A stretch of 64,000 nucleotides of DNA from positions 11,656,001 to 11,720,000 of the forward strand of contig OX597823.1 of assembly GCA_951406725.2 (NCBI GenBank). Direction: 5' to 3'. This document shows, piece after piece, positions 4,801 through 64,000 of the stretch; the stretch's first letter is position 1; every line of letters begins with the position of its first letter. Both the position numbers and the translations under genes were made by a program. Under the pieces are notes generated by a model, which did no database searches, was not told the DNA's origin, and saw nothing but the letters and a program-made list of their open reading frames with translations. The DNA is from Octopus vulgaris (taxonomy: Eukaryota).

Positions 4801-5019
4801 CCCTTCCTTACCAACCCTGCTGAAACCAGCTCTGGCTCTGAGTACAAATGTCTTGTTTTCATAAGTTTTCAATTAAAATCTTCCACCAAACCTTAGTCAC
4901 AATTTATGTTCCTAACACTAGCTGAATGATAACCAAGTTATTTTATTAAATTCTTTGTTATATATAAAGTAATTAAAAGAAACACAGAGCATCTCAAAAT
5001 AAATACAGTAATGAAATGG
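4801..5019. mobile_element. piggyBac-like MITE family 1, TTAA-flanked
   Basis: TTAA at 4797-4800 and 5020-5023; about 220-bp body repeated at 29928-30148 and 56976-57189; CCCTT...AAGGG-type termini. Confidence 0.8.
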
Positions 5020-8941: not shown

Positions 8942-9042
8942 CCCCAGGAACAGCTCCAAGGAATTTGCGTGGAAGAGCTGCTAGTGCAACCACCATATCT
9001 TTGGAATGGCAAGAACCCGAAATTCCGAATGGAATAATTGAG
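8942..9042 (+). CDS. Lar: LAR-family receptor tyrosine phosphatase, internal exon encoding the N-terminal part of FNIII repeat 2
   Basis: Acceptor ttttttcctttaaactttcAG, donor GAG|GTAAGC; 101 nt, phase 1 to 0. Translates (A)PGTAPRNLRGRAASATTISLEWQEPEIPNGIIE, matching recalled LAR/PTPRD FN2 '[34 protein letters not shown]'. Confidence 0.93.
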
Positions 9043-15770: not shown

Positions 15771-15972
15771 GGATATAAAATATTCTATACTTTGAATCCA
15801 GATCTCCCTATTATTCTTTGGGACCATAAAACCCACAACAATGGCCAGAATAAAGTGGAAACTCTTCTTAACTTGAAAACAAACAGCACATATACTATAA
15901 CCATTTTAGCTTTTTCTAGTGCTGGTGAAGGTCCTCTTTCAGAAGAAATTCAAGTAATGACAAATCCTGGAG
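15771..15972 (+). CDS. Lar: LAR-family RPTP exon encoding the C-terminal part of FNIII repeat 2
   Basis: Acceptor ttttttgcAG, donor GGAG|GTAATG; 202 nt, phase 0 to 1, in frame with the previous exon. GYKIFYTLNPDLPIILWDHKTHNNGQNKVETLLNLKTNSTYTITILAFSSAGEGPLSEEIQVMTNPG resembles PTPRD 'GYRVYYT...[28 protein letters not shown]'. Confidence 0.95.
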
Positions 15973-18385: not shown

Positions 18386-18856
18386 CGAGGGGCATTCAAT
18401 AAGTAATGCCCCTGACCCACTTCCCATAGCAGTAGAGCAACGAAACTTGGCAGTTATTAGTCTTTTTCTACATAGGAACCACCCAGAGTTACGCATTTCT
18501 CCCATCGTTTGATGCAGCTCTGGAGACTGTTTTTGTAGAAGACCCCAGCTTGGTCCTCCAACCATGACGTGACTTCAGAAATCAAGGCTGCATCATCTGG
18601 GAAACGCTTTCCTTTCAAATACAATTTCATGGCTGGGAAGAGGTGAAAATCAGAGGGTGCAAAGTCAGGAGAGTAGGGGGTGGATGGGGGAGGAGTTCAT
18701 AGCTGCACACCTTTGCTTCTGATCTGGCGACACGCGAGTTGTGGACCGGAGCGTTGTCCTGCAGGAGGAGGATGCCTTTGCTGATCTTGCCTCGCCTCTT
18801 GATTTTGATAGCTTCTCTTAATTTCCTCAAAAGTGAAGCATAATAGTATCTATTTA
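18386..18856 (-). mobile_element. mariner transposon 3' fragment: transposase C-terminus plus one TIR
   Basis: Minus strand YYASLLRKLREAIKIKRRGKISKGILLLQDNAPVHNS...LPHPP, then after a frameshift YSPDFAPSDFHLFP..K..LKGKRF...RWEKCVTLGGSYVEK. Terminus TA|CGAGGGGCATTCAATAAGTAATGCCCC. Confidence 0.92.
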
Positions 18857-19695
18857 TGAGATGGAAGCCATTCTGTTTCCAAAAAGAACACAATCCCATT
18901 TCTGATTAGTCTTGCAATGGGGAATTTTGAAACTTAATGTCATGTTCTTTACTTCATCACATCGATTACTAGATGAAATCTAATAAAACTCTACTTGTAC
19001 ACAACTCAAGACCTGCTATTCCTTTAAAGCTTTTTAAGACTTCTGTCTTTAGTCCACAGCTAAACATTTGCTAATGTTAGCAATGCTTTGTATGCACATA
19101 TAGATTATCTTTACATTTTCTTTTTTTATTCTTTATTTGTCATACTACTTTTAGAAATATTTACCCATTAAGGATAGAAAGTCTCTCAATATGTTGCTTT
19201 TGACTAAATTAAACCTGTTGATGTTGCTTGAGGGTTGTCCATTTTAAGGTTAAGATGAATACCCTACTTCCTCCAAAGTAATTGCAAACGCAAAATATCT
19301 TTTATGCTGCTAAGAACAAACTTGGCTCTGGTTTCATAGCATTCAGTGGGTGAGTGATAATTTTTTTCCAAGACTTGACTTCAGCTTATTTCTGATCTGA
19401 TAAATATCCTTGACAACTGGCCTATGTCAGTTGAAGTGATGAAGAACAAAATGGTCTGCTTTGTAGCATCTATAAATAAAGAATAGTCCACAATTTTATC
19501 CATTCAGTCATGGTATGTCTTAGAATGTTTCTGATTAGTGTTTCAGTATTTAATCCGAGTTCTCCTGAGATTTTCCTTCATTACCTGATAATATCTAATA
19601 CTACATATATTGTTGGATCAGTCTATTTAAACTTCTATATGGGAGATGGAGGTCTGCTGTTTTTGGTTTTTGATATATATATATATATATATAAC

Positions 19696-23525: not shown

Positions 23526-23573
<48 letters not shown>

Positions 23574-23863
23574 TGTTATATATAAATATATATATATGTT
23601 ATATATATGCGTATATAGGATATATATATATTTAATATATATAATATATATTATATATATGTTATATATATATATATTATTGATATATGGATATATGTAA
23701 TAATTTACATATATGATATATAATATATATATATATATACACACACACATATATATCTTTTTTTTTAATTATTGATTTCTGCCTATGGATTTGTTGTTTA
23801 TGTGCGGGATGTTCAAACACTTGCATCATTTCGTATTGCTGAAATCTCTTGTGTGTGTTTCAG

Positions 23864-23893
23864 TTCCAGTGAATAAACCTGTTATATTTGATC
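23864..23893 (+). CDS. Candidate 30-nt alternative microexon in the LAR FN2-FN3 linker (VPVNKPVIFD)
   Basis: More than 200 nt free of AG before tttcAG; perfect donor C|GTAAGT; 3n length, phase 1-1, no stop; TGC motifs upstream and TGCATG at 24003-24008. Confidence 0.65.
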
Positions 23894-24292
23894 GTAAGTA
23901 GTTCTGAAAAGTATGGCATTTATAATATTTATTATTATTATCATTATTAATAATATTACCATCATATAAACCTCCATGTCTTTATACAGTGCTCCTATAT
24001 GGTGCATGTTGCTGCATATTTTTTAAAATATTTTTAGTAGCCTGAAGTCCTGTAGATTGTGACTTTCAAATATCTTCTGACAGTCTTGAACTGGCCTTTG
24101 TTTTTTGCATCAGTTATTACTTGTATCAATTTTGTCTAGCGTACGTACATGTAAATTTTTGCGCTGCCGCTATATACTACTGCGAAGATGCCAGCATGCT
24201 TGCCCTTTGCTTTGATCTGCTGCCTGCTGCTGCTGCTGCTGCTGCCGACGCGTTGCACTGCGCGATCGTTACAAATCAGTTTCTTTCTGCAG

Positions 24293-24331
24293 CGATGGAT
24301 GGACTGAAGACCATACATCCTGATATTGCAC
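24293..24331 (+). CDS. Candidate 39-nt alternative exon (A/P-MDGLKTIHPDIA)
   Basis: tttctttctgcAG acceptor, AC|GTAATC donor, 3n length, phase 1-1, open frame; lies in a GC-rich island with a (CTG)n/YGCY cluster upstream. Confidence 0.4.
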
Positions 24332-24492
24332 GTAATCCATCCTGGGTTTACCAGTCCAGTCTTTGTCCATTGCCGTGTTTTTTTCCGAGTGATCTTCCTA
24401 CTGTTTTCCTCCCTTCTTTCCAACGGAGCTATGCACACTTTATTTCAGCCATTATCTGCGAAAAGGTTTACATACATACATGTATGTACGTG

Positions 24493-28646: not shown

Positions 28647-28652
28647 AATCAG
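28647..28652 (+). CDS. Candidate 6-nt microexon AATCAG (adds E/Q-S)
   Basis: About 105 nt AG-free zone, branch-point-like TACTAAT (28605-28611), pyrimidine tract, ctgcAG acceptor, CAG|GTGAGG donor; frame-preserving in phase 1. Confidence 0.65.
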
Positions 28653-30148: not shown

Positions 30149-32145
30149 TTAATATGATTATTCCATTAATTTCATTTTCATTTTGCAACATGTTGCATTT
30201 ACATTTATTGGTCGTAGATAACTAAGTGTTCTACTATATTTCATTTTACACTTTAGCTCTCTCTCTCTTTCTTCCTCTTTCTCCCTCTCTCTGTCCACTC
30301 CTAATAAATATGACCTTACACAAATATATACATAGATATATGACATCCCTGTATGTTCTGAGTTCAATTGAAGCTGCAGTCAACTTTGTTCCCTTTCTGG
30401 TGGTGGTGGGGATCAGTAAAATAAAGTCGCTGGGCTAGATTTAATTTGGGCCTTTGAAGAAGCCTCAATTGGTGTTGCTCAGCTTGCTAGAAATAATAGC
30501 AAACAAACCTTCTTCACACTTAAAAAAGTACATGTTGGATAGTGTAGTTCTCTGTATATAAGAAAAAGATTGGGTGGTCATTGTTGGAATACTTTTGATC
30601 AGAGGTTTCCTCAAACAGATCTTTCTTGGGGCTAAACAACAGTAAAAATAGTGTCCTTGTGACTATTTTAGAATTCAGTTTTACATTTTTCTACATGAGT
30701 ATTGGATCGATAGAATCCTTAAGGTGTCATACAAATTACCTTGGCCTTATACAATCTAAGTTCAAATCCTGCCATGGTCAACTTTTCATTTTATCCTTCT
30801 AGAATTGATCAAACATATTTGTGAAATACTGAGATTAATCTAAATCAACCATCTACCTCCCAATGTAACATTGTTTGACATTGTACCTATGTCAGAATCC
30901 AGTATTATCTTATAGCTTTTTATGTGATGTCACTTTACATTTTGTGTTCAGATGCCTGTGTTTAGTGTTACTTTTCCTCCTTCCAGGGTTGATAAAATAG
31001 AGTGCTAGTCAATAAATAGGGTCAATTTTCACCGACTGTACCCTCAACAATTTGTGACATTGTGTCTTTAACAGAAATTAGTATTATGATTTTTCTGTAG
31101 TATTCATGATCATGATTTTCCCATCTGCTTTTCCGTGTAGGCTACATTGGATAGGTTATAATGAGATAGTGTTTTATGACTGGATACCCTTCTTGACACC
31201 AACCCTTTTCATTGCCTTGAATGAGTTCAGAAATGCAGTGTACATCTAATAATCGAAATTTTATTTTCTGCACTTTTAATATGATCTTCTTCTTTAGTTT
31301 TTGGAATATATGATGTTAACATTATATCATACATGCCTCATTAGGTATCATAATAAAAGTTATAGTTTTTAATCTGTTTTATACCACTTAATACTGACTG
31401 TGTAACCTTTTCTTTTAACTCAGTAACTGCAGTTCTTTGGAGTTACGTTTGTTGTAGCTACCTAATATATTAATAGTTTCGTTTTTGAGAAATGGTAGAG
31501 CTTGTGACACTAGATATGTTAAGCAGGTTTTTTTTTTTGTCCTATTGCAGTTTGTGGCTGAAATTCCCTTCTGTGTTGTTTCAGTTCTTGCTGGTCTTGG
31601 AACAGATTAGTGAGTAAAGAAGATTTTATTCAGAGGATAAACACAGACTAATATAATTTGTATGTATTTTCATAGTCACTGAAAGGTCTGATAAATATGT
31701 TTCAAGATAATAAAAACTGAGTATGGTTATAAAAGATACTATATTATGTGTGTATGTATATATAATTTATATCAAATTTATGTGTGTATGTATATATAAT
31801 TTATATCAAATTTATGTGTGTATGTTTATAAAATTTATATAATTTATCATGGACTACATTATCCAATGTGTCTCTTTTTTTTTTGAAAAACAGTTGGTAA
31901 GGAGTGTGTTGGTATTTAGTTTTAGATCTTGCTATTCTGACTTCAAATTCTGCCAGGGTCCTCTTTACTTTACATCCATCCAGGGTCAATGAAGCAAAGT
32001 AGTGGTGTTGATTTAATCAAATGACACTTGGTGTTTCCCTGGCCTTTTCAAGCAATAGACTGCAAATACAGGATCCTAAAAGTACAATCGTATTGCTGCA
32101 TGCACATTAACTACAGGTGACTGAATAAACCCAATGGCCATAGTA

Positions 32146-32591
32146 CAGTGATCCTTTGACTATCGCAGGTGTTATGTTCCAAAACTTCCTGTGATAGGTG
32201 AAAATCTGCAAAGTAGAAACAGTACTGTACTGTATATTTAAAAAAATTTTTATAATTTCTCCGAAAAGCTCTATCTGCGACGATTTCATCTCAATTGAAG
32301 GCGAGGGGCTTTCTCCGTCCGGGTTGCGGATCCGTGGAATAAGCTGCCGGACGAGATAGTGAAGATGCCGACGACCGCTCAGTTCAAAGTCTCTCTTGAC
32401 CAGAAATGGCCTGAACTCTTTGCATGAACACCCTCCCTGTACATAACTCCATGTCCCCCTACATGGCCTTGCTTTTTGCTTTTTGAGCCCCAAAATTAAC
32501 TTAACTTAATATTATTGTAAATGCAAAGCAACACCTCAGAGCAATCGACATTAGCTTAAATAATAAACTGTGATATGGCAAGGGATTACAG
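32146..32591. mobile_element. Tigger/pogo-like MITE (TA-flanked) with a nested CR1 fragment
   Basis: TA|CAGTGATCCTTTGACTATCGCAG ... CTGTGATATGGCAAGGGATTACAG|TA imperfect inverted termini. Confidence 0.55.
32260..32508 (+). mobile_element. CR1-clade LINE short 3' fragment
   Basis: Highly similar to 35722-35977; ends in a TTAAC-type repeat tail. Confidence 0.85.
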
Positions 32592-35105: not shown

Positions 35106-35502
35106 CACCTAGCCATCAAAATCATGCCAAAACAGACACAGTAGCCTGGTGCAGTCTTCTCCCTGGCCGGCTCTTGTTAAACCATCCAACCTATGCCACC
35201 ATGGAAGACAGATGTTTAATGATGAATGTATATATTTATACACATTTAGACAAGCAGTTTTAACACACAACATCAATGTATAAAGTTTTCTGCAAGCATT
35301 TGTGTTGTTATCAATGAGTACACTTTTAATCACAGGCATTCCATTTGTGATCATGTTTTTTTTTTTTTACCTTTAAACATACTGTGTCTATTACTTCATT
35401 TTCTAGCTTTTTTTTTTAAGGCTGTGATGTTTTGTTTGAGAGGTAGTTAGCTATTTATAACCACATAGAAGCTTACTTACTGGCTCATGAAGGGAATAGT
35501 TT

Positions 35503-35977
35503 CAGCATCTCGAAAGAGTCCAGAAGCTGGCTACCCGCATGGTTCATGGTCTCAAAAATTTGTCCTACAAAGAAAGGCTGAGGACGCTCAACCTTTATTC
35601 TCTTGAAAAACGCCGCCGCCGTGGTGATCTCATTCTCGCCCACAACATCATAAGCGGAAAGTGTAACCTCTCGAAAGAGCTGTTCTTCACTCCTGCTCCA
35701 GAGCGTCGGCTGCGGGGTCATTCCGAAAAGCTCTACCTGCGACGATTTCATCTCAATCGAAGGAGAGGAGCTTTCTCCGTCCAGGTTGCGGATCCGTGGA
35801 ACAAGCTGCCAGACGAGATGGTGAAGATGCCGACGACCGCTTTGTTCAAAGCCTCCCTGGACCTCAAGTGGCCTGAACTCTTTACATGAACACCACCCTG
35901 TACTTAACTCCATGTCCCCCTACATGGCCTTGCTATTTGCTTTTGAGCCAAATTAACTAACTAACTAACTAACTAAC
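35503..35977 (+). mobile_element. CR1-clade LINE 3' fragment: RT C-terminal region, 3' UTR and (TAAC)n tail
   Basis: LERVQKLATRMVHGLKNLSYKERLRTLNLYSLEKRRRRGDLI...RGHSEKL...FS..V...WNKLP is the typical CR1 ORF2 end; tail (TAAC)n at 35954-35977. Confidence 0.92.
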
Positions 35978-45302: not shown

Positions 45303-45587
45303 TCCCCCAACAGCCGAAAAATCTCCAGGCTCTTGCAGAGTCTGCAAATACTGTACATGTGACTTGGGATCGACCAGATGCAATGGATAATATCGAGAGC
45401 TACGAGCTATATTATAACGATTCCCACTACCGCCAGAATGTTCACATAAGTATTAAACCGCCTGTAGTAAGTTACCGTTTAGTTGATCTTACACCCGATA
45501 CAGTATACCACGTTCAAGTATCAGCAAAATCCTTACGTGGAGAAGGAGCACGTACCCCAACAATTCAAGTTAGAACACCTCAGTTCG
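45303..45587 (+). CDS. Lar: LAR-family RPTP exon encoding FNIII repeat 3
   Basis: T-rich tract then tctttgttatAG; donor TTCG|GTAAGT; 285 nt, phase 1-1. VPQQPKNLQALAESANTVHVTWDRPDAMDNIESYELYYNDSHYRQNVHISIKPPVVSYRLVDLTPDTVYHVQVSAKSLRGEGARTPTIQVRTPQF has the FNIII W/Y/L-P/Y pattern and LAR FN3 similarity. Confidence 0.95.
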
Positions 45588-53689: not shown

Positions 53690-53998
53690 CCCCAGGTGCC
53701 CCTCCTTTGGCTGTGAGTGGTATTGCACTTGACTCACGCAGACTCAACATTACCTGGAAGCCACCACCCCGCACCAAGCAAAACGGTGACATCACTGGCT
53801 ATAAGATAATGTATGTTGAAAATGATGGTGTTAAAACCAAAAATGATGCCTTAGTAGTTAATGTGGATGCAGATGTGAACTCTTATATATTGACTGACCT
53901 GTCAAAATGGACCCAATATAAGATATGGCTTCTAGCTTACACCAGCATTGGCGAGAGTCCTTCATCCCAACCCATCTTAGTGAGCACTGAAGAAGATG
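53690..53998 (+). CDS. Lar: LAR-family RPTP exon encoding FNIII repeat 4
   Basis: Acceptor cccttatcccctcAG, donor GATG|GTAGGT; 309 nt, phase 1-1. APGAPPLAVSGIALDSRRLNITWKPPPRTKQNGDITGYKIMY...LTDLSKWTQYKIWLLAYTSIGESPSSQPILVSTEED carries the LAR FN4 'L.KWT.Y.I...A.T..G' and 'T.ED' motifs. Confidence 0.95.
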
Positions 53999-54347
53999 GT
54001 AGGTACCAGAAAAATAATCCTCATTTTGAAGTGGCTTTGGGTGACTTAACATGCTTCTTAACAACTTTAGCTTATCAGACTTGGCTGAAGTGGTTTCAAA
54101 ATTTCAATTTTCTCTTCATTAACAATTAACTTATCCTAAGCATAAAATTCAAAACTTTGAATGTTGCATCATCCTATATCATCTAACAGTCTACTCCTAA
54201 CCATACTCCTTTTCCTTCAAGCTTTTAAAAACTTGATTTTAAAAAATATCTTTTCTGTTTTAATTTTTCCTCACTAACAATATCTATATTTCACCTAACA
54301 GGCAATAAAAAAAAAATCATGTTGTTTTGATTGTAGAATATTAAAAT

Positions 54348-54394
<47 letters not shown>

Positions 54395-56220
54395 GTGTAA
54401 TATACATAAGAAACATTATAGATATTGTAAAAACACTTGATGTATTTGAAAATCTAAATGTTAATGTAAAATTAAATCGAGTTAAAACATTGATGGTAAT
54501 AGCAAAAAACAGTACTCCCTAATAATAGATCTCTATCTAGTGTGTCTCACACACCAAGAATATGGAAACATAATGATCTGGTGTTAGGCAAAGTTATTTA
54601 AATGATCTTAAATTAAACTCATTAAATATTTTGTTGAAACATGATTTAGTTTAATAAAACCTAGGTTAAGAAAATAGATTGAACAATGGGTTGACTTTAT
54701 TAGTCTACATTCTTCTATGAAATACTTGAAATGTCTTTTGTGATATCATACCAGCATGTTCTCATCTTGTACGTATATATTTTCTTCTTCAAATGTGAGT
54801 AAAAATTACTTTGTAAAAAATGTTCCACATCACAAAATCCATTCTCTACGGTAGATTACTTCCAAAGAATTCTGGGATAGCAAATGAGGGAAGACAAACA
54901 TACTTTTTTTTTAGTCTATAGTTATCTTCATTCTTTTCCCTATTTTTCCTTTCTGTCATTTTAACTATTTTTGACACAGGTTCAGTATGCATTTACATTT
55001 TACTTGGAACAAAATGGTTTATGACAACTGACAAATAACATTTGGACAGTGACATGTGAAATATTTTATGTTCCTGTTATACTTTTTACCAAATATTGGA
55101 TCATATCAATTTCTTCAGGATGGTGTAGGGAAAACCTCTTAAAAATTGCTCATACTGTAAAACAAGCTCTTTAACAGTGCTTGCTATTTTCTATGTAGCT
55201 GCTAGTGATCAATCTGTGATCCAGTTTCAATTTCCTGTTGGAGTACATGCTCTTGCTTTAAGAAAAAGCATGGATGCTAGCTACTATCATCCAATTCTCT
55301 TCTCTGCTTAGGCATTTTCCTGCCTAACTAAACAAAGCTTGTGTATATTATATACTCATCTACGTGCCCCATTTAAAGTTTTATATTGTAGTTAGTAGTA
55401 TAGAAAGTTATGGCAAATGTTACTGAAACCATTTGTCAGTACTTGTTTCCTTCCAGAAAGCATATTTAAAATAATTTAGTAACATTTCTGTCTTTAAACT
55501 TAATGGAAGAAAAATAAACTATATTTCTGTTTAGGCTGATGATGGTGGCATTTTGTTATCTTATTGCTCCTTTTGAAATATGGTCTACCTCTAAATAATT
55601 TGATTGATTTCAATAAATAAATAAATAAAATGAAAAGTAATTTTTTTTTTGCTCATCTGTGAAACTCTTCTCAACTCCCATTAGAACTTCTGTGAAAAAC
55701 TAAATTCTCTGTTGTCCAGAAGCTATTTCTGTAATTTTCTTCTAATCTCTTTATATATAAAGTAAAACCATTTCATGTGTAGTTAGAAATCAGAGATAAA
55801 GATCACATCTTAAAGAAAAAAAAAAAAGATTACAGTTTTGAGCTACATCAAAGATCTTGGAGTTTACAAAGCACTTTCTTTTCCTTCTGTATATTTCTGT
55901 TTTGCTGTGCACTGACCAGTATATGTTGCACCACTTGTATCTGTTCCATTTATAACCTCTGCATAATTTTTTGTTAATTTTTCTAGAATATGTATTCCAC
56001 TCTATATTTCCCCCTACTCTTTTAATTATCCTTTATAAACTGTTGCTTTCTTACATTTAAACTTCAGTTATAAATCGGTATTTAATTAATCTTAGGGAAG
56101 ATTTCTGGATGTTTATAAAGTTCTTCATATAAACACCAACTGATCACTAGAACTTTGTAGAATATTCGATTCTTAGTTCAGTGGGACAAATATCAGTAGA
56201 AGATACTTAGATGAATTAGT

Positions 56221-56620
56221 TACTCTTTCTCTTTTACTCTTTTACTTGTTTCAGTCATTTGACTGCGGCCATGCTGGAGCACCGCCTTTAATCGAGCAAC
56301 TCGACCCCAGGACTTATTTTTTGTAAGCCCAGTACTTATTCTATCGGTCTCTTTTGCCGAACCGCTAAGTAACAGGGCATAAACGCACCAGCATCGATTG
56401 TCAAGCAATTCTAGGGGGACAAACACACACGCATATATATATATATATACATATATACAACGGGGTTCTTTCAGTTTCCGTCTACCAAATCCACTCGCAA
56501 GGCTTTGGTCAGCCCGAGGCTATAGTAGAAGACACTTGCCCAAGATGCCACGCAGTGGGACTGAACCCGGAACCATGTGGTTGGTAAACAAGCTACTTAC
56601 CACACAGCCACTCCTGCGCC
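56221..56620 (-). mobile_element. SINE family A copy
   Basis: Near-identical to 34013-34415. Confidence 0.88.
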
Positions 56621-56975
56621 TATTTGCAAGTTTTGTTATCAAATGAATGTGCGTAGGAATGTATTAGTGTATGTAATTGTCTCATCGGTTAAAGCTAAGG
56701 ACAATGTTCTAGGTTTGGGTATTAAATGTGAGGTTTATGATGAAGTACCATGGCTTGAACATGTAACTGTTATTTGCCTTCACTATGAACTTGTTTAGTA
56801 GACTAGTAAGTATACAATTACCAAAACCCTATTAAAAATGCTAGTGGTTACACTATCATCTACTCAAGAGGAACATTCAAATATGTTGAGCCAATTTGGT
56901 GGTACTACCTGCTTAGAAAAAGCAGCTAAATCTTCAATCTCGTCTTATCATCTTGAAGATAGGTAGGACATTTAA

Positions 56976-57189
56976 CCCTTTTGATACCAACCCGGCTGAA
57001 ACCGGCTCTGAGTACAAATGTCTTGTTTTCATAAGTTCTGAATTAAAATCTTCCACTAAACCTTAGACACAATTTATGTTCCTAACACTAGCTTAATGAC
57101 AACTAAGTTATTTTACTAAATTCTTTGTTATATTTAAAGTAATTGAAAGAAACACAGAGCATCTCAAAATAAATACAGTAATGAAAGGG
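56976..57189. mobile_element. piggyBac-like MITE family 1
   Basis: TTAA|CCCTTT ... AAAGGG|TTAA. Confidence 0.85.
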
Positions 57190-57899
57190 TTAAGGTAATC
57201 TAATTCCAAATAAATTTATACCTGAAAATAATATAGGGTAGCTCAGGTCGGAACACTATCGATCATAGGTTTGCATGATGAAAGCTGACTTGCAAAATGA
57301 GAAGCAAGTTTATTTAATTCTAATTTACATTCCAGTCTAGTTGACAGGTATAATACTTAGATAGGATATGTATTTGAAAACACTCATGCGTAGAATATTT
57401 TTGGTGATCTCAACCACTCTGTGTGTGTGCATGAATTTTAAAATAAAAACCATGCAGTTTTCTATTGATTTTTACTTACCTTACACATTTAGTTCCAATA
57501 ACAACATACTCTATAAATTGTTACCTGCTAGCTAGAATTTATTCTAAGAACCGATATATTGCTATATAAATTATTGCCAATATTAATTTTTAAGTTTTAA
57601 TTATTACATGCTAATTAGCCATGAGGTTAATTACAGTTCTATTTCATTATCTTTTGTATATCTTTCTGACTTTTAAACAGATGTTACTAATTTTATTAAT
57701 AATTATATTGTAGCAGCGATGTCAGCTTTTTGAAAATTTTTTTGTTTAACTTCTAATCATAAACAGTCAGTTAAAAAGAAATTCTCTAGATATAGGGGTA
57801 TAGTTGTGTGTGTGTATGTGTCTGTGTACATATAAACACTGGCTGGTGATACTTCAAAGTCTCTGTCAATAAAATTACGATATGTGTATATAATATGTA

Positions 57900-59987
57900 T
57901 ACATCATATATATATTAATGTGTTCATGTGTGTTAGCTTAATATTTGTTTTAATATTTCTGAGCACTGATCTGATATCTTGAACAAGGCTCAATTCTATT
58001 CTAGTTTTAGTCTTATCTTTTGATATACAGTTTAGGAGTTTCTTGCTTTGCAGCGATAACTTGTAGGAAATGTAATTGTTGATTCTAGTGTTGTCCTTGC
58101 AAGTCAAGTGTCTGCATGTCAAGAGATTAGAAGATAATTTTGCTGACTTAGTTACTTTGTAGTTCCAGCAACTTCTCTGTTTTCTGTTTTGTCTACAACC
58201 AATAAGAATGGTTGCCAGATCTAGTTTTCAAGTTTGCTTCAGCATGTACGTCTTCAGTATATTCTGAATTTCTGGCAGATGGTTAGCAATTCCTTCTTTC
58301 AATGATGGATCAGTTTGCAACTGTTCTCTGTTCCTCTCCCAAGAAACGCAGAGAAATTTCTTTTTTAGTTTGGCATTTCCAAAGTGAGACTTTTCTCTTA
58401 AATACTTCAACTCAGTCCAGACACTTTAACCTGTTTATATCAAATCATTGTGAGGCGAGGTTGGGTTCATTTAAATGGATGAGTATATTGTTGAGTAATG
58501 AGTATATACATTTGTATGTTGTCTGTTTGATAAGTAAACAATGTACAAAATGAGCTCACAGTTCTCAAACCTTGCTTCCAAATTCTTTCCTTATTTTAAG
58601 AGGAAAATGCCAATTTCCTCAGATACAATAACAACTAGCTTTGTAAAAGCTAGCACATTGTAATATGGAAAACTATAACTTAGCATTCACTTAATCACTC
58701 AATCTTATGGCTAAGATTTGCTTCAAATATCCATGACTTGAAATTTAAGCAGTAAAGTCACCATAACAATTGTATGTTGATGAAGTATGCAGTTGTAAGC
58801 TTTTATGTAAAGTACTCTTCTCTTTCACTAGTACTGCAAAACTAGTATTGTGTCCCATCATTACTGCTGCACCATCAATACACACAGATTCCAACACATT
58901 CCACTCTTGATAATTGCATTAAAAAAGAAGTATTATGAAGCAGTTGGAAAACATCAAGAGCTTTGGTAGTTGGTTGCACTTGTTCACAAAACAAAAGTTT
59001 ATCCTACAAAGTATAATTCTGTATATATTGCAAATGTATACAATCAATTCACTCACTTCTGAGATATCTGTTGAGTCACCCATTTGAATACTGATGGGAT
59101 ATGGGGGTCATTTCATTAGTCACTTGGGCAAAGACAATCCTTCCAGTGACTCAGATTTAGTGACATTATCATTGAGTAGAATGTGTTGGATATTCTTGGC
59201 TGCTCTATGTCCAACGACAAGTTCTGCTTCATTCAGGGAGTATGATTTAACAATCTTTTCTGGTGCATAGAACAACTATTTTCTTAATACAAATATTTGT
59301 CACTTTAAACAGGATGTGTTATATTATTTTTCATGAAATGCAAAATGCAAGATGAGGAAGAGTTCCCTCTTTTTACTGTATCAGACATTTGGGGAAGTTT
59401 TTCAATCTTGCAGGTCTTAAATTTGAATAACTCTTAATGAAGTTGCAAAACATATTTGGTACTTGATTATTGCAGCCAAAGTTGTCTTTGATAGATGTGA
59501 ATCCATACTCAACTGTTGCTGTGTTTCTTGACTTTGACAGCACACACAGACAGTGAATCGGATTACTGTTAAAATCAAAATTTCTAGCACTACCCATTAT
59601 GCAAAACAAACAAATAATTTTCTATCTATGAGAGTAGGTCCATTGGTTATTCTCAGCTAAGGATATAAACTATAAAAGGCTGGAGTTTAATAGAGAATGT
59701 GATAAAAATCAGATAGGTGAATAGGGAACAACCCAACCAAGCTATATAGGTGCATGCTCAGAGGTAGGCTAAGAAAAATACAATTACATGCAAGTTGTGA
59801 TGTAGAAGAGCAGTGACAACAGTGTTATGATATTAGCAAAGAGTGCGAGTTGTGAAAACGTAAATAAAAAAAACAAAACAAGCTGTGGGCAAATTAGGTC
59901 ATCTACTCCCCATCATAAAGATAATGTAATGGGACCATTTCCAGCACCTCACCAATGAATTTTAGCACCCCAAATTGTGAAACACTG
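57900..59987 (-). mobile_element. Decayed hAT (Buster/Charlie-type) DNA transposon
   Basis: Minus strand SIQMGDSTDISEVSELIVYI...KLLFCEQVQPTTKALDVFQ...SVCIDGAAVMMGHNTSFAVLVKE, like Buster 'LQLDESTD...EFLFC..L.TTTKG.D.F...VCTDGA.AM.G...GF..LVK'. Terminus reads CAGTGTTTCACAA at 59975-59987. Left boundary approximate. Confidence 0.7.
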
Positions 59988-60109
59988 CTCTACGTGTCCA
60001 TTCAACCTGCTAGAAATAGCTGTGAATCTTCCTCAGGTCACACCCTATCATCTTAAAAAAGAAAAGATAATGTAATCCTAGACACACTATTTTTTTCTTT
60101 CTATTGCCT

Positions 60110-60341
60110 ATTTCTTTACTACCCACAAGGGGCTACACACAGAAGGGACAAACAAGGACAGACAAACGGATTATGTCGATTATATCGACCCCAGTGTGTA
60201 ACTGGTACTTATTTAATCGACCCCGAAAGGATGAAAGGCAAAGTCAACCTTGGTGGAATTTGAACTCAGAACGTAACAGCAGACGAAATACAGTTAAGCA
60301 TTTCGCCCGGCGTGCTAACGTTTCTGCCAGCTCGCCGCCTT
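60110..60341 (-). mobile_element. SINE family C, full length with 12-bp TSD
   Basis: Reverse complement of 36170-36402; TSD TTTCTATTGCCT at 60098-60109 and 60345-60356. Confidence 0.9.
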
Positions 60342-62316
60342 ATTTTTCTATTGCCTTCTACAATTGGACTGCAGCCATGCTGAATCAGCATCAGTTTTAA
60401 TTGATCTACTATTCCCAGTATTCATTTCATTCAGACTGCATTTTATTTTATTGGTGTCTATATCAAACTGCTAACCTGCAATACCAATTTCATTTTGACT
60501 TGTGGCAGCCGTGATACAGCCACACATATCTATGACTGGTTTCTGTACAGTTTCTGCTAACCAAATTTCACTTACAGGATACAGCTTAACTTCAGGCTAT
60601 AGTAAGACACTTGCCTAAGATACTGTGCTCTGAGATTGAATCCATAACCATGTAATTATGAAACTATCTTCTTAGCTACGCAAGCCATGACTGTGTCTGT
60701 GCCTCGACCTTCTGTCTTCAAGAGAAGAATTGGACAATCAGTGTTACAACACTTTTGTTTATAGGACTCCATAAGCAGAGATAATTTAGGGTTAAACTTT
60801 AGTTGATTTATGCATAGGTAGTAAATTATTTCATGTAGACATTTGCACAATCATGTTCACACCTGGGGAGAGGACTAGAAATTATGGGATGTTGAGAGGG
60901 CCTGTATGTGATTATTTGACTTGCTAGAAATAGCAGTCAGTAAACTAGATTTCATCACATAGCTTATATGTAATCCATTACTTAACAGCACTATTTTCAC
61001 TACGTGCTCCTCATGTGCCTTTAAGAGAGTTCAGTCTATTACCAACATCCATACCAAATCCCTATAGAGGCTTTGCTCTCCACTCCTGCTTCTTTTACTT
61101 AACATGCATATATTCTGGCTGGGCACCAACCTCTACGTTTCTCCCTTATTTAGAAGAGCCTAAGTTATGACTGCTCTCTTTGCTCCTCCTCCTCTCAAAC
61201 CCCACCTTTTCATAAATGTATTTCTAATGAAACAATTTTTTTTCCTCTTTTAATGGTTTCAACCATTGGACTTCTATCATACTGGGGCACTACTTTCAAG
61301 AATTTCAGTTGATTATGTCAGCCCTAGTGCTAATTTCACTATTATTTTATTTCATAAATCTCTGTTTGTTGAATTATGGGGAAAAAATAAAAACATTCTT
61401 TTGACAGTTGTTTAAACATAAATTGAAATAGATACACACGCAAGCACAACAAATATCTACTATTTCTGTATATCATATTCCACTCACAAGGTATTGGACA
61501 ATTCCCAGGCTGCAGTGGAAGATACTTGCTGAAGTGTCTCTCAGGGGGATCAAAGATTCAGTAAAATAACTAACTTTTAATATTAAGATAGTGTAAGGCA
61601 GTGAGCTGGCAGAATTGTTAGCACACCTGGGAAAATGCTTGGCTGCATTTTGTCCATCTTTATATTCTGAGTTCAGATTCTGCCAAGGTCAACTTGCCTC
61701 ATTCCCTGAAATTGCTGGTCTTATGCCAAAATTTGTAACGAATATCAAGACTGTGTTACAATATTGACTACCACCAGACCAAATCAGTAAAAAAAATACA
61801 GTGAAGACTTCTCTGAGTATGTGTGTACATGTGTATGCAAGAGAATGGTTATAACAATAACTTGGTTGCTAATGTAACACAGTGTGTGCTTGTGTAGGAA
61901 AATATAACCATATGAATTCTTTAAATTTTCTGAGAAATGGAGCTATCTCCAGTCTGTTGGAATCAAACACACTGATGTTGAATAAACTGACAGTAAACCA
62001 TTGAGTTTATATCATTAAATAATTGTTCTGTTGTTATGGGAGAGTTTATATCTATTCGTATTCTTTGATAAGATATTGAAAATAACGGCTATAAATGATA
62101 TTACACTGTAACTGATTCTGATGGATATTTAATAAGCTCTATTAAAAATATCTATATGTTAGTATGTCAATTTTTTCAACTTTAAATTTTGTGTAAAACT
62201 GTATAATTAAGTATAAAGGAGACATTAGTTTATGCTTGAGTTTTAACAGTTGTTCAGTTTGTTTGCATACCAGTGTATATAGGTGTGTTTATATGAATGT
62301 ATATATGTATACATTC

Positions 62317-62551
62317 AAGGTGACGAGCTGGTAGAAACATTAGCACGCCGGGCGAAATGTTTAGCGGTATTTCGTCTGTCGTTACGTTGTGGGTTCAAAT
62401 TCCACCGAGGTCGACTTTGCCTTTCATCCTTTCGGGGTCGATAAATTAAGTACCAGTTACGCACTGGGTCGATGTAATCAACTTAACACATTATGTCTGT
62501 CCTTGTTTGTCCCCTCTATGTTTAGCCCCTTGTGGGTAATAAAGAAATAGG
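62317..62551 (+). mobile_element. SINE family C copy followed by a short family D end (62552-62606)
   Basis: Near-identical to 36170-36402. Confidence 0.88.
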
Positions 62552-63702
62552 TCATCATCATCATCATCATCATCGTTTAACGTCCGTTTTCCGCGCTAGC
62601 ACGGGTATAGATAGAAATAGAAATACATATCTGTGCGTATGCATGGGTGTGTGACTGTGTATAGATAGATTGATTGGTTTAAACACATGCAGACCAGTGT
62701 GGTTATATTCACACTGAATGCTTTTCTTATTAGTACTAATAATTAGCATTTACTTTTTACAGTAGTTCTATAGCAGCTCTGTATAAAAGGAAAACAGTAC
62801 AAATGCAAGAATAATAATACTTTAATCAATAAAATACTCAATATGAATTTTGCCATAATGCAATATCAGTTTCACAAGACTTTTGATTGCACATCAGGTT
62901 TCATACTAAACGTATATACAATGAAGAATAAATTAATTTAATATTCTAATTAAAAAACAAAGTGAAGCCTTTATTAAGTTGCTAGACTAATGGGATAATT
63001 TTTCTCTAATTCCTGCATGTTTCCTTACCATGGTGTTGGTTCCTAGCTGCCTTTTAACTTTCATTTAATCAAAATTATATTGAAATGATGTATTGTTTTT
63101 CATGGGTGTAAACAACAGTTATTTAAAGCGGGACATTTTACAATTATTTTAAATGCATGGAGGCTTTCTTTTTTCTTAACTTTATTTATTATTATTATTT
63201 TTTTTTTTTTTTTTTTTTTCCAATTTTTATGTAAGTATGGTTAGCTGTCTAACATGTTTTCTGTTTATTTTTTTCCAAATTGTTATTTTTTTTTTCCAGT
63301 GTATTATATTTATCTAAGCATGATATAAAAGATATCTGATATGCCTATCTTTTTTAAATAAATACAGTCTGATAGTAGTTAAGATCCTTTGTGTTTTATC
63401 TTAGTTTTTGTAATGCTAAACAGTTCATGAATTCCTAGGAGTTAAGCATGTCATTTGTCCAATTTTTCTCATTGATGCATGTGCTACAGTAGATCATGTA
63501 TGCATACATATTTGACCATATATGACGTATCCTACGTTTTATCTTTTGTCATTACTATTAACAGTGATAATCTAGGAAAAAGAAAGATATAGAGATAGAC
63601 TATTCTCTCCACTAACTACACTTAGCACATGTAACATGTTAGTAATCCACTAAATATACTGTCAGACTAACAGCAAGGATCTTACCCATCTTTACACTCT
63701 AG

Positions 63703-64000
63703 TTCCTGGAGAACCACGGAAAATACGAGCTGAACCCATCAATTCTACTGCTGTGTTTATTGAATGGAAACATCCTTCCTCCAAAAATAGAAATGGTATA
63801 ATACGGGGTTATCAAATACAGTATGTCGAAGTAGATGACCATGATCAACAATCAGGTGACCTCCGCATGACCGATACCACTGATGGCGATAAAACTGAGT
63901 ATGTGATTACCAATTTAGAGCCGGATACTAGGTACCAGTTTACTGTTGCGGCATATACTCGAAAAGGAGATGGAATACGAAGCAGAGCAAAAATAGTGGA
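63703..64000 (+). CDS. Lar: LAR-family RPTP exon encoding FNIII repeat 5; runs off the window end and is absent from the ORF track
   Basis: Acceptor ctttacactctAG, phase 1. Hand translation VPGEPRKIRAEPINSTAVFIEWKHPSSKNRNGIIRGYQIQYVEVDDHDQQSGDLRMTDTTDGDKTEYVITNLEPDTRYQFTVAAYTRKGDGIRSRAKIV matches LAR FN5 'VPSGPPRKVEVEAVNSTSV..W...GQIRGYQVHY...L.PET.Y..TV.AYT.KGDGARS'. Confidence 0.95.

Follow-up and report, generated by a model that had tools for sequence, protein, structure and literature searches.

An octopus gene for a LAR-type receptor phosphatase carries an optional 30-nt exon, here called microexon 1, at the junction between the second and third fibronectin domains (FN2 and FN3). Considered as a whole, microexon 1 is probably best explained as the first of two optional, frame-keeping FN2–FN3 microexons, with a predicted hinge-loosening effect and a likely ancestral origin. 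The window, by which we mean the whole 64-kb stretch of DNA analysed, holds five large exons (A to E) of this gene on the + strand (Table 1). The stored protein P0003, which matches exons B to E at 96–100%, has the Ig, FN3 and PTP Pfam entries of a LAR-type (type IIa) receptor tyrosine phosphatase, and the protein matches are named LAR or PTPRF/S/D; proteins named Octopus bimaculoides match exon C, which encodes FN3, with 100% identity. Aligned with the solved structures of human PTPsigma and PTPdelta, the microexon 1 insert falls opposite a gap placed exactly at the FN2–FN3 joint.

Table 1. Positions of the exons and sequence features discussed in the text; look-alike exons are numbered within their own loci
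Feature	Position	Strand	Description	Evidence
Microexon 1	23864..23893	+	30 nt, phase 1-1, peptide VPVNKPVIFD, optional	Proteins P0003, P0004, P0006; skipped in contigs of runs X15, X7, X20
AG-free zone before microexon 1	23619..23861	+	243 nt	
Inner in-frame AG	23868..23869	+	Possible 24-nt form	Use not seen in proteins or contigs
TGCATG	24003..24008	+	110 nt downstream of microexon 1	
Microexon 2	28647..28652	+	6 nt, AATCAG, donor GTGAGG, optional	P0003/P0004; contig of run X20
LAR exon A	8942..9042	+	First half of domain matching vertebrate FN2	tblastn of P0003/P0006; splice sites located
LAR exon B	15771..15972	+	Second half of FN2, phase-1 donor	Covered by contigs of 4/4 runs; loose ends at 15972
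LAR exon C	45303..45587	+	Domain matching vertebrate FN3	Protein matches
LAR exon D	53690..53998	+	Next fibronectin domain after C	tblastn; splice sites located
LAR exon E	63703..64000	+	Next fibronectin domain after D; truncated by window end	
27-nt look-alike exons	L008 4835-4861; L030 6545-6571; L062 1512-1538			DNA prediction

Evidence that microexon 1 is included comes from annotated models. The peptide was already present in automatic protein models of Octopus bimaculoides and is found in three separate protein clusters. P0003 and P0004 (XP_014773614.1, isoform X10) contain both microexons and read MTNPG-VPVNKPVIFD-QS-VPQQP across the junction, P0006 (O. bimaculoides 'phosphatase S isoform X7') has microexon 1 and lacks QS, and P0005, from a related source, has neither; the O. 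bimaculoides LAR models therefore hold the exact peptide both with and without the 6-nt exon. The first-pass annotation, whose letters and coordinates for the exon proved right on re-reading, had proposed an in-frame LAR microexon joined downstream either to the 6-nt exon or straight to the FN3 exon, and the models bear out the peptide and both joins, the former in P0003 and P0004 and the latter in P0006. The same annotation had called for a search for junction reads. We checked contigs of four runs, which lose rare forms and whose RNA type was inferred from exon-limited coverage, with a divided outcome: joins that skip the exon and joins through microexon 2 were seen, but none led into the 30-nt exon. 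Exon B joins exon C directly in two of the four runs, X15 (depth 222 beside 327) and X7, and passes through microexon 2 in one, X20 (depth 702 beside 2090); run X18 gave intron read-through only, and among the contig ends leaving exon B a junction into microexon 1 appeared in 0 of 4 runs. Run X20 also contains a 31-nt stub that extends 30 bases of exon B by a single letter. In the assembly graph this stub points to a further branch that is compatible with microexon 1 without identifying it. Because no junction was seen in the four runs, it is the models that carry inclusion.

Microexon 1 is thus an optional cassette exon, included in P0003, P0004 and P0006 and skipped in the contigs of X15, X7 and X20. 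Each of the four isoform states is represented, with models and contigs contributing two apiece: neither microexon, the first only, the second only, and both. Since each has a length divisible by three and phase 1-1, the frame is preserved in every combination and the hinge gains 0, 2, 10 or 12 residues, microexon 2 contributing QS after microexon 1 and ES when alone. Under a stricter definition of microexons as exons of 3–27 nt, microexon 1 falls outside, and the 6-nt microexon 2 and the 27-nt look-alikes described below fall inside. At 30 nt, microexon 1 lies within the definition of 30 nt or less given in PMC7821500.

Microexon 1 is bounded by a tttcAG acceptor and an ATC|GTAAGT donor. The donor had been described as perfect, and it does match the consensus on the intron side (GTAAGT), but not on the exon side, which is ATC. 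In the same way, the claimed absence of AG for more than 200 nt upstream holds in length, but the zone is partly a (TA)n array (23564-23741), so that about 120 nt of it is unique sequence. AG-to-AG gaps of at least 200 nt number 4 among 3279 AGs, and those of at least 100 nt number 34. The 29.3-kb intron between exons B and C offers nine stop-free, in-frame YAG..GTRAG candidates of 3–51 nt, and the longest AG-free zone among the nine belongs to microexon 1; by this zone and by its presence in database proteins, the exon is more than a product of chance. The accessory motifs say less. TGC does precede the acceptor (at -84, -61, -42 and -27) and a TGCATG, presumably an Rbfox-type motif, does lie at +110, as the first-pass annotation had them. 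By comparison, TGC occurs at -30..-4 of 30% of 1667 YAG sites, four TGC fall within 100 nt in 5.7%, and TGCATG is expected within 150 nt by chance in about 7%. Taken singly, the inner AG, the TGC motifs and the TGCATG are each unremarkable and amount to weak evidence. No CTAAY branch point is present within 150 nt of microexon 1. YGCY occurs 18 times in the 400 nt downstream (23894-24293), in part within a CTG run near 24217-24245; we take these to be possible MBNL/CELF-type sites, and a second GCATG stands at +301.

Inserts at the same junction are found in other molluscs. Among the LAR proteins compared, 9 of 32 have an insert at the FN2–FN3 junction, three of these nine being octopus, and 23 have none. 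The Haliotis rufescens insert is APIFDAGLP and that of Biomphalaria is ANRGRNVHVLPTKFPQPIFD, ending in KFPQPIFD, so that PIFD recurs in both snails. Pomacea has two forms, GFQ and AGFQ, Ostrea has INFE, and the chiton Liolophura has GMSRLYP, with no IFD. Elsewhere, isoform X3 of the nemertean Lineus longissimus (P0210) carries a basic 13-residue insert, DKTRSSTPGKKGG, also with no IFD. Among 146 new matches (cluster representatives), 0 of the 23 LAR-like proteins that span the junction have an insert, and a further 108 proteins, mostly arthropod and taken as one representative per cluster, include 105 with none. Two coral matches in this last set were discarded, their scores being too low for the FN2–FN3 junction. 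Three named annelid proteins, from Capitella, Ridgeia and Owenia, lack the insert.

A metagenome scan for the FN3 exon gave 80 loci from animal hosts, most of them short on the upstream side and several of them near-copies. The whole intron is spanned by three of the 80, and all three have a 27-nt phase-1 exon, predicted from DNA, that ends [IV]FD-N|GTAAGT and encodes VLHLEGVFD, VLGVEGIFD or VLDQEGIFD. The chance expectation of such an exon per intron is 0.011, 0.002 and 0.006, values that are not independent, the hosts being related. L049 and L069 have an exon of this kind too, which brings the total to 5 of 80 loci. Upstream sense-strand DNA (174 kb) contains the end pattern itself eight times, and the reverse strand (347 kb) does not contain it at all; three of the eight matches (a second one in L030, and two in L078/L079 with no in-frame AG) were not counted as exons. 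In the five look-alikes the AG-free zone measures 34–55 nt, TGC lies within 60 nt in three, and the 400 nt downstream contain TGCATG in one and GCATG in three. The codons for I/V/L, F and D vary synonymously among the octopus and look-alike exons. Eleven of the 80 loci, and L049 as well, have a second exon of 9 nt with the end CAG|GTGAG, and in L008, L030 and L049 a long exon is again followed by a short one; kinship of the 9-nt exon with the octopus microexon 2 is the weaker case because its donor is generic. Neither exon appears in the 5–10 kb upstream of exon C in L034, L040 or L018, none of which reaches exon B. Annelids are the probable hosts. Of the 13 loci tested, 11 have Capitella as their best named match, among them all five that carry the exon, and a weak 94-column tree places the loci outside a supported mollusc-plus-Owenia group, with the annelids not forming one group. 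Alignment of the flanking DNA between octopus and these loci found nothing in common beyond the exon end and donor. Near position 4867, L062 has a word resembling microexon 2 without splice sites, and L078 and L079 have, near 240-250, an FD-N|GTAAG end without an in-frame AG; these may be decayed exons.

From these comparisons, microexon 1 likely dates back to an ancestor that molluscs and annelids had in common. The octopus, snail and probable-annelid exons sit in one and the same intron, agree in phase and donor and finish in [IVL]FD, which argues for homology, and since their codons vary synonymously, selection would seem to favour the IFD peptide and not the DNA sequence as such. The principal rival is that this intron is a hotspot, that cephalopods, gastropods, bivalves, chitons, nemerteans and annelids each gained short exons of their own because the linker would tolerate any insert, and that IFD is convergent or due to chance. 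The inserts do range from 3 to 20 residues, some without IFD; recurrent gain of exons at one position is documented (PMC8797185; bioRxiv 2026.09.05.749416), and the flanking introns of octopus and the metagenome loci cannot be aligned. Separate origins would nevertheless have to produce, in octopus and in five distinct probable-annelid exons, the same last three residues, phase, GTAAGT donor and leading V, together with PIFD in two snails, synonymous codon changes and a recurrent order of long exon before short (L008, L030, L049), and we consider them unlikely. It is also conceivable that microexon 1 is spliced only at a low level, or owes its place to annotation, and serves no function, as its junction is in 0 of 4 runs and the skipping forms are plain. 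Against this stand its occurrence in three separate protein clusters, the conservation of IFD across distant animals, and a 701-nt stretch around it (23760-24460) of which 0.67–1.00 of the sampled words are present in 20 runs from 7 organisms, a figure taken without a control stretch; such an event would be a very improbable source of this pattern.

A further alternative leaves the ancestry aside and concerns the acceptor. The first-pass annotation had proposed a 24-nt form spliced at the inner AG, and microexon 1 would then have two working acceptors whose 30-nt and 24-nt products tune linker length. That inner site is CAG and in frame; length variants exist for the second exon (AGFQ and GFQ in Pomacea, and a tandem acceptor in L049); Haliotis has a short APIFD form; four of the five look-alike exons have in-frame inner AGs, though at other offsets; and the 31-nt stub in run X20 is compatible with either acceptor form. 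The 24-nt form itself, however, is absent from all stored proteins (by pattern search over cluster representatives) and from the loose ends of the four runs, whose contigs lose rare forms, the inner AG has only a 4-nt AG-free zone after the first AG, and an offset of 6 is seen in 0 of 5 look-alikes. An in-frame inner YAG also arises by chance in 21% of random 30-mers and in 43% of 178 coding 30-mers. We regard two working acceptors as distinctly unlikely; splicing likely takes place at the first AG, the inner one being a likely side effect of the codons for Pro-Val.

Returning to microexon 1 as an ancestral, hinge-loosening cassette, structure prediction indicates what its inclusion could do. 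AlphaFold gave a confident joint model of FN2–FN3 without the insert (pTM 0.82), and with the 12-residue insert the two domains remained well folded while pTM was 0.50 and residues 102–108 had pLDDT below 50; the two folded sequences are 88% identical rather than the same, and few aligned sequences cover the insert. The insert is predicted to uncouple FN2 from FN3, with loss of their fixed orientation. Coles et al. described FN3 as folding back on FN2, with the FN2-3 linker as a possible flexion point, and the whole region as flexible even without an insert (PMC4239663). Inclusion of the ten residues of microexon 1 would convert a tight joint between the domains into a loose tether, and the longer hinge may alter how far, or at what angle, the ligand-binding end of the ectodomain extends, putatively as the vertebrate mini-exon meB does at Ig2–Ig3. 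The hydrophobic, conserved IFD could in addition be a contact motif that alters the choice of ligand. Neuronal regulation of the eMIC type is the leading candidate because of the small size of the exon, its AG-free zone and the class of its gene; an eMIC/Srrm234-type factor acting at the long AG-free acceptor, possibly aided by Rbfox, might bias inclusion towards neurons. A broader proposal is a LAR splice code common to molluscs and annelids, in which an ancient FN2–FN3 tandem microexon pair, with IFD as a neuron-specific binding motif that switches the synaptic partner, evolved independently of vertebrate meA/meB, as their equivalent in spiralians, and was retained across phyla. We put this forward as a tentative extension that is rather doubtful in its full form.

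The closest parallels are the vertebrate LAR mini-exons, which lie in Ig2 (meA), at Ig2–Ig3 (meB), in FN5 (meC) and near D1 (meD) and decide which synaptic partners are bound (PMC8711739). Like the octopus pair, meA to meD of PTPRF, PTPRD and PTPRS are short, frame-keeping, optional exons of the same receptor family; meA likewise consists of two microexons in tandem, and meB likewise makes a hinge between domains longer (PMC8711739, PMC4239663). We rejected identity of the octopus pair with any of meA to meD, as its position is FN2–FN3 and there is no sequence likeness. Ligand effects are known for vertebrate meA and meB; for the octopus pair they would be putative. With the neural microexons of the eMIC/Srrm234 (SRRM3/4) programme, microexon 1 shares its small size, long AG-free zone, a host gene of the cell-surface or synaptic class and, at a distance where 30% of YAG sites have one, an upstream UGC, but it departs from the eMIC code in that the nearest UGC is at -27, no CUAAY lies nearby and the donor is strong on the intron side. 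Fly eMIC targets combine a strong CUAAY branch point with a weak donor, the latter being a feature of the fly only. Conservation of microexons between phyla is reported to be rare, with the programmes almost entirely rewired. The fly and mouse eMIC programmes have four exon positions in common and no more (PMC8797185), whereas microexon 1 appears to cross phyla.

That the exon exists is ordinary, as it was already annotated automatically; its spread across molluscs and probable annelids is what we did not find in print. We found no published account of microexon 1 or of the FN2–FN3 pair in the text available of the sources cited or of bioRxiv 2021.02.24.432780 and 2024.09.17.613571, although the octopus exon tables that supplement bioRxiv 2026.09.05.749416 may list microexon 1; the whole word 'Lar' is absent from the main text of that preprint, which gives a median of 3% of neural exons as conserved in outgroup species including octopus. 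Eight new mouse Ptprd exons are placed in a figure of PMC10883964, and one of them may lie at FN2–FN3. If microexon 1 is shared by octopus, snails and probable annelids, its final residues preserved, it would be one of few cross-phylum microexons and, if so, would offer a small handle on how adhesion receptors diversified in spiralian nervous systems, cephalopod brains included.

Several other features of the gene and window deserve mention. Microexon 2 has a 106-nt AG-free zone, with CTAAT at -40 and -75. A 3-nt candidate exon, TTG (31894-31896), with a GTAAGG donor, a 156-nt AG-free zone and an adjoining 34-nt tandem repeat, was set aside, as neither the proteins nor the contigs support it. 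P0003, P0005 and P0006 pass directly from Ig3 to the FN2-type domain, and P0081 has an extra fibronectin domain there; FN1, which would lie upstream of position 8942, may be skippable. Five extra residues, QRNKT, precede FN2 in P0003 and P0004 and are missing from P0006; they likely represent a further microexon, and no exon for them was located within the window. Exons D and E (53690-64000) are skipped in P0004 and P0006, which run from FN3 to a later domain, and short isoforms of the vertebrate LAR family are comparable in this respect. On the - strand, broken frames at 18457-18905 resemble, we presume, a mariner/Tc1 transposase, and two fragments related to each other, at 32107-32505 and 35500-35889, presumably correspond to the end of a LINE reverse transcriptase.
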